Position numbers and translations under genes: made by a program
In this document: in pieces, positions 4,344 to 11,979 of the stretch
How positions within the stretch are numbered: position 1 is the first letter of the stretch
Layout: each line of letters opens with the position of its first letter
Assembly (NCBI RefSeq): GCF_000172995.2
Contig: NC_014729.1
Coordinates: 270,001 to 302,000 of the forward strand
Direction of reading: 5' to 3'
Origin: Halogeometricum borinquense DSM 11551
GTDB lineage: Archaea > Halobacteriota > Halobacteria > Halobacteriales > Haloferacaceae
Length of the DNA stretch: 32,000 nucleotides
Notes under the pieces: model-generated
Database searches by the model: none
Seen by the model: the letters and a program-made list of their open reading frames with translations, nothing else
What the model was told of the DNA's origin: nothing

Positions 4344-5873
4344 CTATTCGAGTAAGAGGAGTTTGGGGTTCATGAGGTACTCCTTGACCTTGTTGGTGAA
4401 TCGAGCGCCGACTGCGCCGTCTACGATGCGGTGATCGAACGACAGCGACAGAGTGAGAACTTTCCGCGGGACGATGTCGCCGTCAACCACGCGCGGTTTC
4501 TCCTTGATCGCACCGAGTGCGAGGATGGCTACCTCGGGGTAGTTGATGATGGGCGTGGCGTACTCGCCGCCGATGCCGCCGATGTTGGTGATGGTGAAAG
4601 TGCCGCCCTGCATTTCCTCGGGCGCGATTTTGCGCTCGCGGGCCTTCTCGACCTTTTCGTTCATGTCACGCGAGAGGTCCAAGAGACCCTTGCCGTCCGC
4701 ATCGTCGACGACCGGAACCATCAGACCAACGTCCGTCGCGGTGGCGACGCCGATGTTGTACTCGTCGCGGAGGACGATTTCCTCGTTCTCCTCGTCGAGT
4801 TGGGAGTTCATGAACGGGAACTCCTTGAGGGCCGCGATGACGGCCTTCATCACGAACGGCATGTAGGTGAGTCGCGTGTCCTGTTCCTCGGCGAGGGGTT
4901 TCAGTTCCTCGCGGAGTTCGACCAGTTCGGTCACGTCAACCTCGTCGTGGTGAGTGACGTGCGGCGCGGTGTACTTCGAGCGCTCCATCTGGTCGCCGAT
5001 GGCGCGACGGACGCCGCGGTAGGGGACGCGTTCGCCCGCAACGGGTCCGGTTTCGGCCGCTTCCGCGGCTTCGGCTTCGCCAGCACCTTCTTCTTCGGCG
5101 AGTGCCTGCGCGTCGGCCGCTTGGGCGGCCTGTTGCGCTTCTGCGTACTCGTGGACGGCCTCGGCGGAGACGAACGCCTGCCCGTCTCGCTGCTCGCTCG
5201 CCGGCACGTTGTTGATGTCTACGCCTTTTTCCTCGGCGACTCGTCGCGTCGCGGGGGCGGCCAGCGTCTTCTCGCGGCCGGCGGCTTCGACCGACGCCGC
5301 GCCCGTGGTGACCTCGCCGTTTCCGACATCTCCGGACTTCGAGACGGCGTCGTCGCCGGAGAACGAAACTTCTCGCGGGCCGTCGTCGGACGCCGCGGAC
5401 TCGTCGTCGGACTCTGCAGCCTCGCGGACGTCGGATTCGGTTACTCGGCCACTCGGGCCAGTGCCCGAGACGGATGCGATGTCAACACCGAGTTCGCGCG
5501 CGAGTTGTCGGACGCTCGGCGACGCGAACACGCGTCCCGAGGATGTCTCGGTTTCACCCGTTTCGGCCGCTTCTTCGGACACCTCGTCCGTTTCGGGTTC
5601 TGCTTCGGCCGCAACTTCCTCGTCGCCCTCACCCTCGACCTCGAAGGTGATGATGACGTCGCCGACGGGGACCATTTCGCCCTCCTCGGCGAGGAGTTCT
5701 TTCACCGTGCCGTTGTACGGTGACGGAACGTCCACGAGCGCTTTGTCGGTCTCGACCTCTGCGACGACTTGATCTTCCTCGACTGTATCGCCAGGCGTGA
5801 CATGCCACGTGACGAGTTCGCCCTCGGCGACGCCCTCGCCAACGTCGGGTAGTTTGAATTCCTCGATAGCCAT
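4344..5873 (-). CDS. pdhC: dihydrolipoamide acyltransferase (E2) of a 2-oxoacid dehydrogenase complex
   Basis: 509 aa. Lipoyl domain with VETDKALVDVPSP, acidic Ala/Glu linkers, subunit-binding domain ASPSVRQLARELGVDIASVSGTGPSGRV, catalytic SFDHRIVDGA. Confidence 0.93.
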   Translation of the reverse strand: MAIEEFKLPDVGEGVAEGELVTWHVTPGDTVEEDQVVAEVETDKALVDVPSPYNGTVKELLAEEGEMVPVGDVIITFEVEGEGDEEVAAEAEPETDEVSEEAAETGETETSSGRVFASPSVRQLARELGVDIASVSGTGPSGRVTESDVREAAESDDESAASDDGPREVSFSGDDAVSKSGDVGNGEVTTGAASVEAAGREKTLAAPATRRVAEEKGVDINNVPASEQRDGQAFVSAEAVHEYAEAQQAAQAADAQALAEEEGAGEAEAAEAAETGPVAGERVPYRGVRRAIGDQMERSKYTAPHVTHHDEVDVTELVELREELKPLAEEQDTRLTYMPFVMKAVIAALKEFPFMNSQLDEENEEIVLRDEYNIGVATATDVGLMVPVVDDADGKGLLDLSRDMNEKVEKARERKIAPEEMQGGTFTITNIGGIGGEYATPIINYPEVAILALGAIKEKPRVVDGDIVPRKVLTLSLSFDHRIVDGAVGARFTNKVKEYLMNPKLLLLE

Positions 5874-5876
5874 CGT

Positions 5877-6872
5877 TCAGAACTCCACCGCGTTTCGGAT
5901 ACCTTCTTCGACCCGTGCAACCGACGGGAGGTAGTAGTCCTCCAGCGCGTACAGGGGGTACGGTACGTCGTAGCCGGCGATTCGCTCGACGGGGGCTTCC
6001 TGATGAAGGAGCGCCTCCTCCTGAATCGTCGTCGTAATCTCCGCGCCGAGACCGCCCGTCTTCGGCGCTTCGTGAACGACTGCTGCGCGGCCAGTCTTCT
6101 TGAACGACTCCACGATGGTCTCTTTGTCCATCGGGGAGACGGTACGGAGATCGACGACCTCCGCGTCGATGCCCTCCTCTTCGAGGTTCTCGGCCGCTTC
6201 GATCGTCGGCCGCGTCATCGCACCGTAGGTGTAGACGGAGATGTCCGCTCCTTCGCGGCGGACGGCCGCTTCCCCGATTGGTACCTCGTAGTCGTCCTCG
6301 GGAACGTCACCGCGGAACGCGCGGTAGATGAGTTTCGGTTCGAGGAAGATGACCGGGTCCGGGTCGCGGATGGCCGAGATGAGAAGCCCCTTCGTGTCGT
6401 GTGGTGTCGAGGGGATAACCACCTTCAGACCGGCCTCGTGCGCGTAAAACGCTTCCTTGGACTCGGAGTGGTGTTCAGGTGCGCGGATGCCGCCGCCATA
6501 GGGTGCGCGGACGACGAGCGGGCAGGTGTAGCGGCCACGGCTGCGGGTTCGGAGGCGCGCTGCGTGGCTCACAATCTGGTCGAACGCGGGGTACATGAAG
6601 CCGGAGAACTGCATCTCTGCAACCGGCCGCATGCCCATCGCGGCCATCCCGATTGCCGTCCCGGCGATGCCGGACTCTGCAAGCGGGGTGTCGATAACTC
6701 GGTCGTCACCGAACTCTTCCCACAGGCCTTCTGTTGCGCGGAAGACGCCGCCGTTCTTTCCGACGTCCTCGCCCATGACGACCACTCGGTCGTCCGCCTG
6801 CATCTCGGTGTAAAGACCGTCCCGTACCGCCTGTACCAACGTGAGATTCTGCGTCTGTTGACTCTGACTCAT
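5877..6872 (-). CDS. pdhB: 2-oxoacid dehydrogenase E1 component, beta subunit
   Basis: 331 aa with a transketolase-like pyrimidine-binding and C-terminal domain pattern (VVVMGEDVGKNGGVFRATEGL..., PLVVRAPYGGG). 3-nt gaps to both neighbouring genes. Confidence 0.93.
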   Translation of the reverse strand: MSQSQQTQNLTLVQAVRDGLYTEMQADDRVVVMGEDVGKNGGVFRATEGLWEEFGDDRVIDTPLAESGIAGTAIGMAAMGMRPVAEMQFSGFMYPAFDQIVSHAARLRTRSRGRYTCPLVVRAPYGGGIRAPEHHSESKEAFYAHEAGLKVVIPSTPHDTKGLLISAIRDPDPVIFLEPKLIYRAFRGDVPEDDYEVPIGEAAVRREGADISVYTYGAMTRPTIEAAENLEEEGIDAEVVDLRTVSPMDKETIVESFKKTGRAAVVHEAPKTGGLGAEITTTIQEEALLHQEAPVERIAGYDVPYPLYALEDYYLPSVARVEEGIRNAVEF

Positions 6873-8247: not shown

Positions 8248-9183
8248 TCAGCTACCGGCCGCAGTTCGTGCTTCCCGGCGCGCCTGTTCGACGGACTTGC
8301 CGTCGCGGACGATGGCGTCTACGAACAGCTCTCCCGCTTTGTACGACGACCGAACCATCGGGCCGGAGGCGCAGTAGAGGAATCCTAACTCGTCCTCGGC
8401 CACTTGTCGCCACGTCTCGAACGCGTCGGGATGGACGTACTCGAACACGTCGAGATGCGTCCGCGACGGTTGCAGGTACTGTCCCAGCGTCACTACGTCC
8501 ACATCGGCCTCGCGGAGATCAGACAGCGTCTGGTAGATCTCGTGGTCGTACTCGCCGAGACCGAGCATGATGCTCGTCTTGGTGTAGATGTCCGACTCGC
8601 GTTTGACCTGTTCGAGAACCGACAGCGATTGCTCGTAGTTCGCGCGTCGATCGCGGACCGGCCACTGGAGACGTTCGACCGTCTCGATGTTGTGCGCGAT
8701 GACATCCGGTTTCGCGTCGATTATCTTCCGGACCGCTTCCTCGTCGCCCTGGAAGTCGGGGATGAGTACTTCGACGAGAATGCTCGGGTCGCGCTGTTTG
8801 ATCTCGCGGATGGTCTGTGCGAAGTGTGATGCGCCTTGATCCGGCAGATCGTCGCGGTCAACGGATGTGAGGACGACGTAGTCCAGTCCGATTTCGGCCA
8901 CTGCCGCGGCGACGTTCGCTGGTTCGTCGGGATCCAACGGCTCCATCCCACCGGTCTGCACGTCGCAGAAGTTGCACCCGCGCGAACACCGGTCGCCCAT
9001 CAGCATGAACGTCGCTGTGCCGGGACCGTCGCGTCCGCTCCAACACTCGCCCATGTTCGGGCAGTTCGCTTCCTCGCAGACGGTGTGTAAGTCGCGGTCT
9101 CGGAGCGTCTGCTTGATGTCAGTGAAACGTCGCCCCGACGGCGGACGCATCTTCAACCAGTCGGGCTTCCGCCTGCCGCTCAT
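8248..9183 (-). CDS. lipA: lipoyl synthase (radical SAM)
   Basis: 311 aa. N-terminal cluster CEEANCPNMGEC and radical-SAM CSRGCNFC motif. Lies directly upstream of its lipoyl-protein client operon. Confidence 0.95.
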   Translation of the reverse strand: MSGRRKPDWLKMRPPSGRRFTDIKQTLRDRDLHTVCEEANCPNMGECWSGRDGPGTATFMLMGDRCSRGCNFCDVQTGGMEPLDPDEPANVAAAVAEIGLDYVVLTSVDRDDLPDQGASHFAQTIREIKQRDPSILVEVLIPDFQGDEEAVRKIIDAKPDVIAHNIETVERLQWPVRDRRANYEQSLSVLEQVKRESDIYTKTSIMLGLGEYDHEIYQTLSDLREADVDVVTLGQYLQPSRTHLDVFEYVHPDAFETWRQVAEDELGFLYCASGPMVRSSYKAGELFVDAIVRDGKSVEQARREARTAAGS

Positions 9184-9460
9184 ATCTCACCGTTCGGCGG
9201 GGAGGTAAAAAACGTGAGGATTATTTTGAGTAGTATGTCGATTAGCTGGCCAAAGCAACGGTATCTGGGAACCTGTTTCAGCGGTTTCGAACGATATCCT
9301 CGGAGAGGTTCACTGTAGATCCGGCTATTGTCTCCACTCCAGAAGCGTTGTCTTCGAAAAGTCACGAGATTCAGTTAGGTGATCGGATTCTGGCAGGGGC
9401 ACCACGAAGCTCGTCATCCTTCACTCACTTCGGTACACTGTCGTAGCCACGAAACGAACA

Positions 9461-9468
9461 ATTATATT
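9461..9468 (+). promoter_or_regulatory. TATA-box-like element (attatatt) upstream of the DUF4157 gene
   Basis: It lies about 27 nt upstream of the ATG at 9494, the spacing expected for a leaderless haloarchaeal transcript. Confidence 0.4.
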
Positions 9469-9493
9469 GGGTGTATGTCATTTTTGGATAGGA

Positions 9494-11077
9494 ATGGGAT
9501 TTCGATCTGTGGATAGGCGGGCGGACAAGAGTGATCACTCTTCTTCTGTCCCATCTATTCAAGAGCTGACGCAAGACTCTGATCGTAGCCGCGGTGGCGG
9601 TTCTCTCACACCGCAAGGGCGCGAATCTCGGTTCGGTCTCGACATGTATATGGATGGGCTGGAAGTCAAAGTCCAGCGTCTCGTCAGGAGTCATGGCGCA
9701 GACCAAGTCCGGGATTGGGCTGATGAAGGGATGACTGTCGATACCATGGGTAAACCGCGCGACATGCGTGCGTTCCGCGAACGCCAGCAGGGACGCTCTG
9801 CCGAAGTCCCAAAAGACATCGAACGCCGGAACGCTAAATCCGTTCAACGGAGTCGCGGCGCGCATCACGAAGCCTCGAAAGCCGGTGACACAAAAGTACC
9901 TGACTTGGTGCGAGACGTTATCTCCTCTCCGGGGCAGACGCTCGAAACCTCGATTCAGCGCACGATGGAGGAACGGATGGGCGACAACCTAGGTGATGTA
10001 CGCATCCATACCGGTCCGTTGGCCGCCAAAGCCTGCGAGGAAATCAACGCGCGTGCGTTCACCGTCGGAAATCACATCGCGTTCAATCACGGCGAATACG
10101 ACCTAAGTTCGGCGGAAGGCCAGCACGTCCTCGCTCACGAGTTAGCGCATGTGAGACAGCAGACGGGTGGTGCCGTGTCGTTGCTCCCTCAAGAAGGCAA
10201 GCTAGAAATTGACCCAGACAAACGTCTGGAGCGGGAAGCCGAAGAAACCGCTCAACGTGTGATGAAAGGGGGGAAACTCGGCGTCTATCGGATGCACAAC
10301 TCCAAGGTGCACGTTCAGCGATTCCCGAACGACGAGGACGTTCGGGAGACAACTGACGGAGTGGGTGCGCATGGGATCCAGGTTCCAGAGTACGAGAATC
10401 TAGATCTGGAACAGTTGTTCGAGTCGTTCGAGGGGAACAGGAAGAAAGCAGTCGAACAAATCAGACAGAACGACGATCTCTGGACCTCACTGCTCCGTAC
10501 GATCGCAATGGACGTCATCCAGAGTTCGATTGAGGCGAATGGAACCAACGTAATCGAGGACGCACTCGATCGATATCACTGTAACATCGTTCAGCACGGA
10601 CACGACCCCGTTCGATTCATGACTGGTGAAGAGGCCAACGAGTGGCACCTCGAACTCAATCCGAACGACGAACGGCCGCACAAGCCAGACTGTATCGCCT
10701 TGGAGTTCAAACCGGCCAGCGAAGACCGCCTGTACAAAGTGACGAAAGAAGGAAGAAAACTGGGGTCCTTCTTGGCACGCGAAGAAACGATTACATCGGA
10801 AGATGATCGGGAAGCGATTCTTGATGTCCTCGGACTGAAAGAAATGTGGAGTGATTACGATATGGTGTCTCAGTTGTCGATAACCGGCGAAGAAACAGTC
10901 TCAGTTTTGTCTAGCGTCGTCGGTACCATGACGGACGACTCACCGGGAGTAATTGAGCGAGAGGGAGAGCCAATCGAACGTCCTGGTGGGGAAGAACAAT
11001 TGTGGCTCAGTGATTTCTTCCCAATGGAGCAATTCGAGATGGTCGGTCCACTGGACGACTTCCAAGGAGGAAAATAA
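9494..11077 (+). CDS. DUF4157 (zincin HExxH) domain protein with divergent C-terminal domain; putative polymorphic-toxin-like effector
   Basis: The ORF contains PGQTLETSIQRTMEERMGDNLGDVRIHTGPLAAKACEEINARAFTVGNHIAFNHGEYDLSSAEGQHVLAHELAHVRQQ (nt ~9929-10171; HELAH at 10136-10150) followed by LEREAEETAQRV, which is the DUF4157 signature. About 300 further residues have no motif I can name with certainty. The track start at 9467 is a TTG. I prefer the ATG at 9494; an alternative ATG is at 9644 (MYMDGLEVKVQRLV). Confidence 0.85.
   Translation: MGFRSVDRRADKSDHSSSVPSIQELTQDSDRSRGGGSLTPQGRESRFGLDMYMDGLEVKVQRLVRSHGADQVRDWADEGMTVDTMGKPRDMRAFRERQQGRSAEVPKDIERRNAKSVQRSRGAHHEASKAGDTKVPDLVRDVISSPGQTLETSIQRTMEERMGDNLGDVRIHTGPLAAKACEEINARAFTVGNHIAFNHGEYDLSSAEGQHVLAHELAHVRQQTGGAVSLLPQEGKLEIDPDKRLEREAEETAQRVMKGGKLGVYRMHNSKVHVQRFPNDEDVRETTDGVGAHGIQVPEYENLDLEQLFESFEGNRKKAVEQIRQNDDLWTSLLRTIAMDVIQSSIEANGTNVIEDALDRYHCNIVQHGHDPVRFMTGEEANEWHLELNPNDERPHKPDCIALEFKPASEDRLYKVTKEGRKLGSFLAREETITSEDDREAILDVLGLKEMWSDYDMVSQLSITGEETVSVLSSVVGTMTDDSPGVIEREGEPIERPGGEEQLWLSDFFPMEQFEMVGPLDDFQGGK
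11066..11071 (+). promoter_or_regulatory. Shine-Dalgarno-like GGAGGA 5 nt upstream of the immunity-candidate ATG
   Basis: Sequence ccaaGGAGGAaaaTAATGg. The toxin stop TAA (11075-11077) shares one nucleotide with the ATG at 11077-11079. Confidence 0.6.
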
Positions 11078-11415
11078 TGGCAAAAATAGAATACGATGGC
11101 CGGGAACTGACGGTCGGTACCCAAACAGTTGTGCTTCGTCACAAGATTGGCCAGGTCTTGGAAGAAGATGGGATAATCCTCGTGGTCCTCTCTCCGTCAC
11201 AGACGGAGGGCCGTGACCAACGTAATCTGCTGGCGTTTGACGAGCAAGGAAACAAACTGTGGGAGTCTGAGATTCCGGAGCACTCGGAGCGCCACATGTT
11301 TGGAGAGATATATAAAGAGAACGGAGATATCATTGGATGGAGTTGGAACTCCAACGAGTACAAAATCGATTTAGAGACTGGCGCACTCGAAAACATCGGC
11401 TACGGCGGGAAGTAA
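11077..11415 (+). CDS. small cytoplasmic protein, candidate cognate immunity/antitoxin protein
   Basis: 112-aa ORF translationally coupled to the DUF4157 gene by the TAATG overlap and SD. It shares the same low-GC codon usage. No signal peptide or TM segment. Beta-rich sequence with a blade-like NLLAFDEQGNKLWE motif. Confidence 0.7.
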   Translation: MAKIEYDGRELTVGTQTVVLRHKIGQVLEEDGIILVVLSPSQTEGRDQRNLLAFDEQGNKLWESEIPEHSERHMFGEIYKENGDIIGWSWNSNEYKIDLETGALENIGYGGK

Positions 11416-11456
11416 TGACATTTGTAAAATCGAATTGAACTGCTTCCTGAAAGTGG

Positions 11457-11532
11457 GCGTTACCCCGTCCGAAGAGATCGACCAGCACTCGATATATGTC
11501 AACAAAACAATTCCATCAGATGGGGGTAACGC
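11457..11532. repeat. 10-bp perfect inverted repeat gcgttacccc ... ggggtaacgc separated by 56 nt
   Basis: Arms at 11457-11466 and 11523-11532, read directly. Located 42 nt downstream of the immunity-candidate stop, in AT-rich non-coding DNA. Confidence 0.5.
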
Positions 11533-11979
11533 TTGGCGGTACGGTGAGCCGACAAAATAGGCTGAAGGAAGCTTAATAAATGTGGCAGATTAGTTATGAG
11601 GAAGAAGAACAAAAATATCCATATTGGCTATTAAATGTCTAAGGCTCCTTTTATCGCTGCTGACTCTCACACCAAAAAACCGTGACACAGTTATCACAAT
11701 TTCGAAATACTCATACCTGAGTAAATCTGAGTGTGGGGTATGAACTGGAAACACCGCCGCGACCGAACGAAGGCAGAGTCGAAGAAAGAGGAGACGAAGA
11801 CCGGCACGAAGTGGTCGTTCATCGCCGCCGCAGTCGGCGCTGCGTAATTCGATTTTCCCTCTGTTCCACCGTCCGCCGAGCGATTGCGCTCGACCGCGTG
11901 AAGAAACGCCTTTTAGTTCGTAGGTCTGGGTGTCGCGTATGACTCTCGCTCTCGCGTTCCGCCGTCGGAGGTCTCTCGC

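Follow-up and report, generated by a model that had tools for sequence, protein, structure and literature searches.

Polymorphic toxins of the Rhs kind are organised as modular cassettes: a toxin domain that varies is joined to its delivery domain at a conserved junction, and an immunity gene stands immediately downstream, with arrays of orphan immunity genes nearby and with the same immunity family appearing behind different delivery domains (Zhang et al. 2012, PMC3482391). In the Tse6-Tsi6 pair of the Pseudomonas aeruginosa type VI secretion system (T6SS), a NAD(P)+ glycohydrolase to which TNT of Mycobacterium tuberculosis is related is delivered by contractile injection, and the small protein that neutralises it is encoded directly downstream. 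For the first characterised archaeal T6SS, four toxin-immunity pairs have been verified (Zachs et al. 2024, Sci Adv, PMC11566945). Here we analyse one of these four pairs, Hbor_02990 and Hbor_03000, which lies in a 32,000-nucleotide stretch of the genome of the haloarchaeon Halogeometricum borinquense DSM 11551 (contig NC_014729.1, positions 270,001 to 302,000; hereafter the window). Its secretion, toxicity and rescue were reported by Zachs et al. The two genes are:

Positions 9494-11077, + strand: toxin gene Hbor_02990, 527 aa from the ATG at 9494, encoding a T6SS-secreted polymorphic toxin (primer matches; PMC11566945)
Positions 11077-11415, + strand: immunity gene Hbor_03000 (C499_11928), 112 aa, DUF7957 (PF25857) (identical database entry; exact primer match)

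The locus has the layout of an Rhs cassette, including the orphan immunity arrays and the shared immunity family that we describe below, except that its delivery module is an archaeal DUF4157/eCIS_core domain. It resembles Tse6-Tsi6 in its mode of delivery and in having a small neutralising protein encoded directly downstream, and among structures in the PDB the predicted fold of its toxin domain matches, weakly, only the toxin domain of Tse6. Unlike Tse6, however, the toxin domain has an extra five-helix bundle at its N-terminus and no detectable sequence similarity to Tse6, and unlike Tsi6, which is not among its best 50 fold matches in the PDB, Hbor_03000 is by prediction an all-beta propeller fragment. 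In the blade-like four-stranded sheets of its model and its motif '(A/G)FD..G..LW' it recalls PQQ propellers such as BamB and the assembling fragments 2yms and Ika4, but it would have only about three blades and shows no sign of cofactor binding, and its role is immunity rather than that of a scaffold or an enzyme. This propeller fold class is absent from the immunity proteins in the 2012 census of polymorphic toxins (PMC3482391).

Hbor_03000 is the partner of a T6SS-dependent toxin

The 112-codon open reading frame (ORF) at 11077-11415 encodes a protein identical (100%) to the database entry 'hypothetical protein C499_11928' of H. borinquense DSM 11551. We searched the window for the primer sequences in the supplement of Zachs et al. 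The gene part of primer Hbor03000_rev (reverse-complemented, ACATCGGCTACGGCGGGAAG) matches exactly at 11393-11412, in the last codons of the ORF; primer Hbor02990_for2 (ATGACTGTCGATACCATG) matches exactly at 9731-9748; and primer Hbor02990_rev maps to 11059-11077 with one single-base indel. Because these primers map onto the window, the upstream gene is Hbor_02990 and the 112-codon ORF is Hbor_03000.

Hbor_02990 is one of five DUF4157 proteins that are enriched in the wild-type secretome as compared with that of a sheath mutant, that is, its secretion is T6SS-dependent (PMC11566945). Introduced alone into Haloferax volcanii it gave no transformants, and a tandem Hbor_02990/Hbor_03000 construct was tolerated, so that the downstream partner prevents toxicity (PMC11566945). 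The immunity interpretation has already been published on the basis of this experiment. The text and supplement of Zachs et al. say nothing about the family, fold or mechanism of either protein beyond DUF4157 (PMC11566945), and in a literature search we found Hbor_02990 and Hbor_03000 in no other paper and DUF7957 in none.

We consider it very likely that the polymorphic toxin Hbor_02990, which the T6SS delivers, has Hbor_03000 as its cognate immunity protein. An original prediction, made from the letters of the window and a list of its ORFs, had proposed this role for the ORF; it is supported by the published rescue (PMC11566945), by the co-occurrence of DUF7957 genes with the toxin domain, and by orphan DUF7957 arrays that lie beside Colicin_immun and SUKH genes. 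The prediction was a correct call of something already demonstrated, to which the comparative results presented here add modest value.

Hbor_03000 belongs to DUF7957, a family with a predicted all-beta fold

Hbor_03000 is an acidic protein of 12.7 kDa (isoelectric point 4.64). It has no membrane segment, because its maximum 19-residue hydropathy is 0.84. Modelled with AlphaFold2 from six homologues, it shows 11 beta-strands and no helix of four or more residues, at a mean predicted local distance difference test score (pLDDT) of 85.9. The earlier description of the protein as small, cytoplasmic and beta-rich was right. It had also been said to carry no recognisable enzymatic motif, and indeed it matches no enzymatic family in Pfam, NCBIfam, PADLOC or PHROGs. 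These four collections gave nothing meaningful for the 112-aa protein; its matches to Carbam_trans_N (E = 0.063) and to a phrog methyltransferase (E = 0.097) were dismissed as noise.

The family, to which the prediction could put no name, is Pfam DUF7957 (PF25857), a label that the identical database protein and all 20 relatives already carry. In a local hmmscan against Pfam no member of the family matched DUF7957, the model apparently being absent from that copy. A profile made from 14 DUF7957 members recovers Hbor_03000 with an E-value of 2.4e-46, and searched against 5.8 billion proteins it finds 20 clusters, all labelled PF25857. A first alignment of eight DUF7957 sequences was too divergent for locus scanning and yielded one locus each from the genome and metagenome scans. 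The 112-codon ORF is a genuine gene, and homologues of Hbor_03000 with 24-63% identity do not differ from it in length; a chance ORF is excluded by conservation across two domains of life.

In Foldseek searches the Hbor_03000 model matches BamB (E = 1.4e-3) and fragments of designed propellers, with query-normalised template modelling scores (TMq) of 0.5-0.67. Searched against the PDB, the DUF7957 profile matches PQQ-type beta-propeller domains with E-values of 5.6e-4 to 1.2e-3, and Pfam PQQ_2 is matched at E = 0.1, by the Natronococcus member alone. From these models and matches, Hbor_03000 and its family look like about three PQQ-type beta-propeller blades. It is impossible for a 112-aa monomer to close a propeller. 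In Halovivax cerinus (locus L001, 694-1629) and on a Natronococcus plasmid (locus L010, 2432-4084), full-length PQQ-like beta-propeller proteins are encoded within 2-5 kb of DUF7957, which may be a coincidence or may indicate where the three-blade fragment came from.

Hbor_03000 could in principle confer immunity indirectly, without touching the toxin, by shielding or repairing its target or by reversing its modification, as the ADP-ribosylhydrolase immunity protein Tri1 does, and such a reversal is conceivable if the toxin is an ADP-ribosyltransferase-like enzyme. We find this very improbable: the protein is a 112-aa three-blade fragment with no match to an enzymatic family; the invariant residues of DUF7957 are mostly structural (G, W, N and D in blade turns); and paralogues within single arrays have diverged rapidly, to 28-63% identity, a pattern typical of proteins that bind toxin surfaces and evolve along with them.

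DUF7957 genes appear to track the toxin domain in archaea and bacteria

Homologues of the C-terminal domain of Hbor_02990 occur with different N-termini in other haloarchaea. Halovivax asiaticus (locus L007) has a 323-aa toxin whose last 270 residues are homologous to those of Hbor_02990 (54% identity, E = 2e-98); it has no eCIS_core, and is followed by a DUF7957 gene with an ATGA overlap. This toxin gene (5033-6004 of the locus, in NZ_AOIQ01000008) keeps a KR-rich leader, Pro-rich repeats and the C-terminal domain, the whole eCIS_core having been lost; the join is at 'IQRHP', and the gene is possibly a toxin cassette that has been displaced or orphaned. In Natrinema sp. 74 (locus L013, CP175698) a 483-aa protein with a different N-terminus scores 62.5 bits with the toxin-domain profile, and a gene for a 248-aa tandem double DUF7957 protein (8922-9668) starts 2 nt after it. 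This tandem fusion hints that DUF7957 units function as multimers, and we speculate that two or more of them may act together. A partial DUF7957 copy of 172 aa lies nearby (6119-6637).

A check on co-occurrence had been proposed for homologues of the C-terminal domain, and in both H. asiaticus and Natrinema sp. 74 the gene downstream is indeed a DUF7957 gene. The same toxin domain is thus seen with eCIS_core in the window, without it in H. asiaticus, and behind a different N-terminus in Natrinema, a distribution in which the DUF7957 gene tracks the toxin domain and not the N-terminus or delivery module.

We also found DUF7957 genes as orphans among other toxins and immunity genes. In Halovivax cerinus four copies follow an eCIS_core-Colicin_D toxin and its Colicin_immun gene. 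H. asiaticus has two extra copies, which make three in all, followed by genes for Colicin_immun (E = 9.4e-9) and SUKH-1 (E = 1.3e-11) proteins, and a metagenome contig (L008) has a single copy behind an ankyrin gene and the gene for an eCIS_core-GH-E nuclease toxin. There are further arrays or remnants at four loci (L013, L017, L018 and L019). Judged by gene neighbourhood, these contexts are those classically seen for immunity families of polymorphic toxins. An immunity function can now be given to this uncharacterised Pfam family, which is new.

Several Natrialbaceae genomes (L002, L017 and L018) have toxin/immunity islands that adjoin an alanyl-tRNA synthetase gene and contain truncated remnants of DUF7957 as well as giant VWA/TSP3 proteins with PD-(D/E)xK-like C-termini. 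Insertions may be favoured at this site, as a hot spot that is conserved between genomes.

In bacteria, DUF7957 genes stand directly after Rhs toxins on a Leptospira interrogans plasmid (L009), in L. santarosai (L011 and L012, where the Rhs proteins are full-length, at 1348 and 1075 aa), in another, Leptospira-like genome (L014) and in a metagenome-assembled genome of Chitinispirillaceae (L015). The two genes overlap by 4 nt in four of these five loci, and the Rhs proteins of all five end in one common domain of about 110 aa (…YYRVFSG..GGFLT…ALSLPPGN…RSRA…RGGAEQFEL). This domain, which is possibly related to the archaeal one, is thus found on Rhs shells in two bacterial phyla; it and the archaeal toxin domain have the order of an R/K...S...Q motif in common. 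The presence of DUF7957 behind Rhs toxins of pathogenic Leptospira is a new observation, and it points to toxin cassettes shared across the divide between archaea and bacteria.

The L. interrogans locus L009 (NZ_CP039285, 89273-101587) lies on plasmid pLiSL2 of a human blood isolate. Downstream of a SpvB/TcaC-Rhs toxin it has many orphan C-terminal fragments of Rhs proteins in a long array, a fragment of 'polymorphic toxin type 10', and small hypothetical genes; it is thus a large plasmid-borne island of toxin and immunity genes.

These contexts also bear on whether DUF7957 proteins are not inhibitors but chaperones or adaptors that stabilise the toxin or load it onto the T6SS spike, in the manner of Eag/DUF1795 or DUF4123 proteins, with the rescue in H. 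volcanii explained by sequestration. A small protein encoded in tight coupling with an effector gene would suit such a role, as would the failure to detect Hbor_03000 on a blot. However, DUF7957 occurs behind the Rhs toxins of Leptospira and Chitinispirillaceae as well as behind haloarchaeal eCIS_core toxins and so goes with the toxin domain and not with the delivery machinery; multi-copy orphan arrays mixed with Colicin_immun and SUKH genes are not chaperone behaviour; and known effector chaperones are usually encoded upstream of their effector. We therefore regard a chaperone role as very improbable and return to DUF7957 as an immunity family.

The predicted fold of the toxin domain weakly resembles that of Tse6

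The C-terminal part of Hbor_02990 forms a separate domain:

Positions 10391-11074, + strand: C-terminal toxin domain, about 228 aa, with a five-helix N-terminal bundle and an alpha/beta core; no Pfam family

It is rare. An exhaustive phmmer search of 1.84 billion representative proteins with the C-terminal 252 residues found only 12 relatives, with varied N-termini; this search replaced a word-index search with the domain, which had returned zero matches, its own protein included. Seven relatives have no significant Pfam family at E <= 10. The conserved columns of the domain are GHE, A-N, P-H, F-V-[RK]-V, a G-G-x-[WF] turn, S-T-x-G and GG-x-x-Q, and these may be the equivalents of the catalytic residues of Tse6 and TNT.

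An AlphaFold2 model of the domain (pLDDT 91.3, predicted template modelling score 0.87) was compared with the PDB by Foldseek. The best match is a chain of Tse6, 4zv4_D (E = 2.3e-3, probability 0.99, target-normalised template modelling score (TMt) 0.47), and two others, 4zv4_C and 4zv0_A, also match; the three together span E-values of 2.3e-3 to 6e-2, probabilities of 0.80-0.99 and TMt values of 0.47-0.51, and the next PDB match has an E-value of 1.0. The predicted resemblance to Tse6 is at the level of fold and not of family membership. On this model the toxin domain is plausibly a NAD+-consuming enzyme of the Tse6/TNT/ADP-ribosyltransferase-like kind, an assignment that we make with some reserve. 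For an archaeal T6SS effector, the Tse6-like predicted fold newly offers NAD+ consumption as a testable activity.

Proposed mechanism and points against it

In the explanation that we favour, the toxin and immunity genes form a horizontally acquired two-gene operon in which the toxin gene is probably leaderless. The immunity gene is coupled translationally to the toxin gene by a TAATG overlap and a Shine-Dalgarno (SD) motif, and because of this coupling the immunity protein would be made whenever the toxin is made. The toxin consists of three parts, namely a conserved N-terminal leader, the DUF4157/eCIS_core domain and the rare C-terminal domain of about 230 aa. It would be loaded onto the T6SS through its N-terminal part and injected into neighbouring haloarchaea, where the C-terminal domain would deplete or misuse NAD+. 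Hbor_03000 would most likely bind the C-terminal domain and occlude its active site, and would in this way shield the producer from its own toxin and from that of sister cells.

In its fullest form, which we put forward only as a tentative possibility, DUF7957 would be an unrecognised three-blade PQQ-type immunity family, possibly assembling into a closed propeller, at which the tandem protein of Natrinema hints, that acts against an undescribed, Tse6/TNT-like NAD+-consuming toxin domain, and the cassette would have been exchanged between archaeal DUF4157 effectors and bacterial Rhs toxins.

Several observations count against parts of this explanation. As regards immunity itself, the anti-His blot in fig. 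S4 of Zachs et al. detects three of four immunity proteins, and Hbor_03000 is not among the three that are named (PMC11566945), so its translation in the rescue construct lacks protein-level proof. A DUF7957 copy on a Natronococcus plasmid (L010) is solitary, with no toxin nearby, the sole such case. As regards the enzyme, the likeness to Tse6 is weak (E = 2e-3, template modelling scores 0.35-0.51, root-mean-square deviation 5.7-6.9 A), Hbor_02990 matches no Pfam family other than eCIS_core at E <= 1, and the toxin-domain profile matches no PDB chain, a search with the Leptospira domain likewise giving only noise. At the conserved Arg column of F-V-R-V, Hbor_02990 has Lys. As regards the shared cassette, the archaeal and Leptospira toxin domains match by BLASTP at E = 0.11; hhalign gives the archaeal and bacterial domains probabilities of 3.5% and 5.8% (E = 0.0065 for the latter); and their profile scores are 1-8 bits, where three toxins unrelated to them score -0.3 to -1.5 bits. 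On these comparisons the homology of the archaeal toxin domain to the bacterial one is only suggestive, and we do not claim it.

The N-terminal part and the start of the toxin gene

Upstream of the toxin domain, Hbor_02990 and its promoter region contain the following features:

Positions 9462-9467, + strand: TATA-like box TTATAT, 27-32 nt upstream of the ATG at 9494 (read from the sequence)
Positions 9941-10171, + strand: eCIS_core/DUF4157 domain ('PVC-metallopeptidase'), PF13699, E = 4.7e-30, residues 159-235 of the 536-aa ORF
Positions 10136-10150, + strand: intact HExxH (HELAH) in eCIS_core (read from the sequence)
Positions 10310-10324, + strand: junction motif HVQRF, at which the conserved N-terminal part gives way to the variable toxin domain

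The eCIS_core match scores 104 bits against a cut-off of 22. The domain is a marker of the cargo of contractile injection systems, and DUF4157 has been described as a PVC-type secretion determinant and releasing peptidase (Zhang et al. 2012, PMC3482391). A reading of the two genes as a type II toxin-antitoxin module that works inside the cell, with the ORF as a labile antitoxin and no part in competition between cells, is extremely improbable despite its two-gene operon and small acidic second gene, given that the toxin has an eCIS_core cargo domain and is found in the T6SS-dependent secretome, that its relatives are fused to Rhs shells, and that the small protein has no DNA-binding domain in a Pfam scan.

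The start of the toxin gene is probably the ATG at 9494. Alternative starts are a TTG at 9467 (536 aa) and an ATG at 9731 (448 aa), and the NCBI draft calls the gene as 527 aa. The N-terminus from 9494, MGFRSVDRRAD, aligns with MG[RK]..RRAD of eCIS_core toxins from Halovivax and metagenomes, and resembles the starts MGFRST and MGFGPH of Hbor_07690 and Hbor_38720 in the published primers. Zachs et al. cloned the toxin from the ATG at 9731 (PMC11566945), and the alignment suggests that their constructs are without 79 conserved N-terminal residues. A probable start at 9494 is a new proposal, and the use of constructs that omit this N-terminus may matter for studies of effector loading. TTATAT is the probable promoter element of a leaderless toxin-immunity operon; its spacing fits the general rule for haloarchaeal promoters.

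A motif of the form (H)[VI]QR[FHW] precedes three different continuations: that of the window, that of the H. asiaticus toxin (IQRHP), and in the metagenome locus L008 (3644-4852) HIQRW followed by the GH-E nuclease. It is possible that this motif is a recombination or cleavage junction of haloarchaeal DUF4157 toxins.

The junction between the toxin and immunity genes

The coupling proposed above involves two short elements at the end of the toxin gene:

Positions 11075-11079, + strand: TAATG stop/start overlap, formed by the toxin TAA (11075-11077) and the immunity ATG (11077-11079), with one base in common
Positions 11066-11071, + strand: GGAGGA, an SD-like motif 5 nt before the immunity ATG

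Both had been pointed out in the original prediction and are as described, with base 11077 shared and a spacing of 5 nt. The tight junction is conserved. In the window and seven further toxin-DUF7957 loci, all eight junctions have either an overlap of 1-4 nt or a gap of at most 7 nt, and in L007, L009, L011, L012 and L014 the overlap is ATGA, equivalent to TAATG. As far as can be read from the sequence, the TAATG overlap indicates translational coupling of the two genes.

The claim that so strong an SD is unusual in this window was overstated, and we reject the idea that it is exceptional. GGAGGA occurs 25 times in the window as compared with 21.8 times expected, so it is no rarer than chance, and it is not kept at the homologous junction in H. 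asiaticus; SD-like GGAG or GAGG is present at four other toxin-DUF7957 junctions. It is normal in haloarchaea for the first gene of an operon to be leaderless and for a distal one to have a strong SD, so the motif is no anomaly. The hexamer at 11066-11071 doubles as the codons for the last Gly-Gly of the toxin.

Base composition of the locus

The guanine-plus-cytosine (GC) content of the window is 0.60-0.66 and dips to 0.50-0.57 at about 9.0-12.0 kb, where the toxin ORF is situated. GC at third codon positions is 0.59-0.60 in the toxin and immunity genes as compared with 0.79 in the neighbouring helicase gene, on which basis the pair is a foreign islet. This low-GC islet is flanked by neither direct repeats nor a tRNA. 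A 560-bp low-GC spacer (11416-11979) separates the immunity gene from the gene for the Hel308-like helicase; in it there are no repeats and no convincing ORF (NCBI annotates a 35-aa product only). The spacer could be a decayed remainder of the acquired islet.

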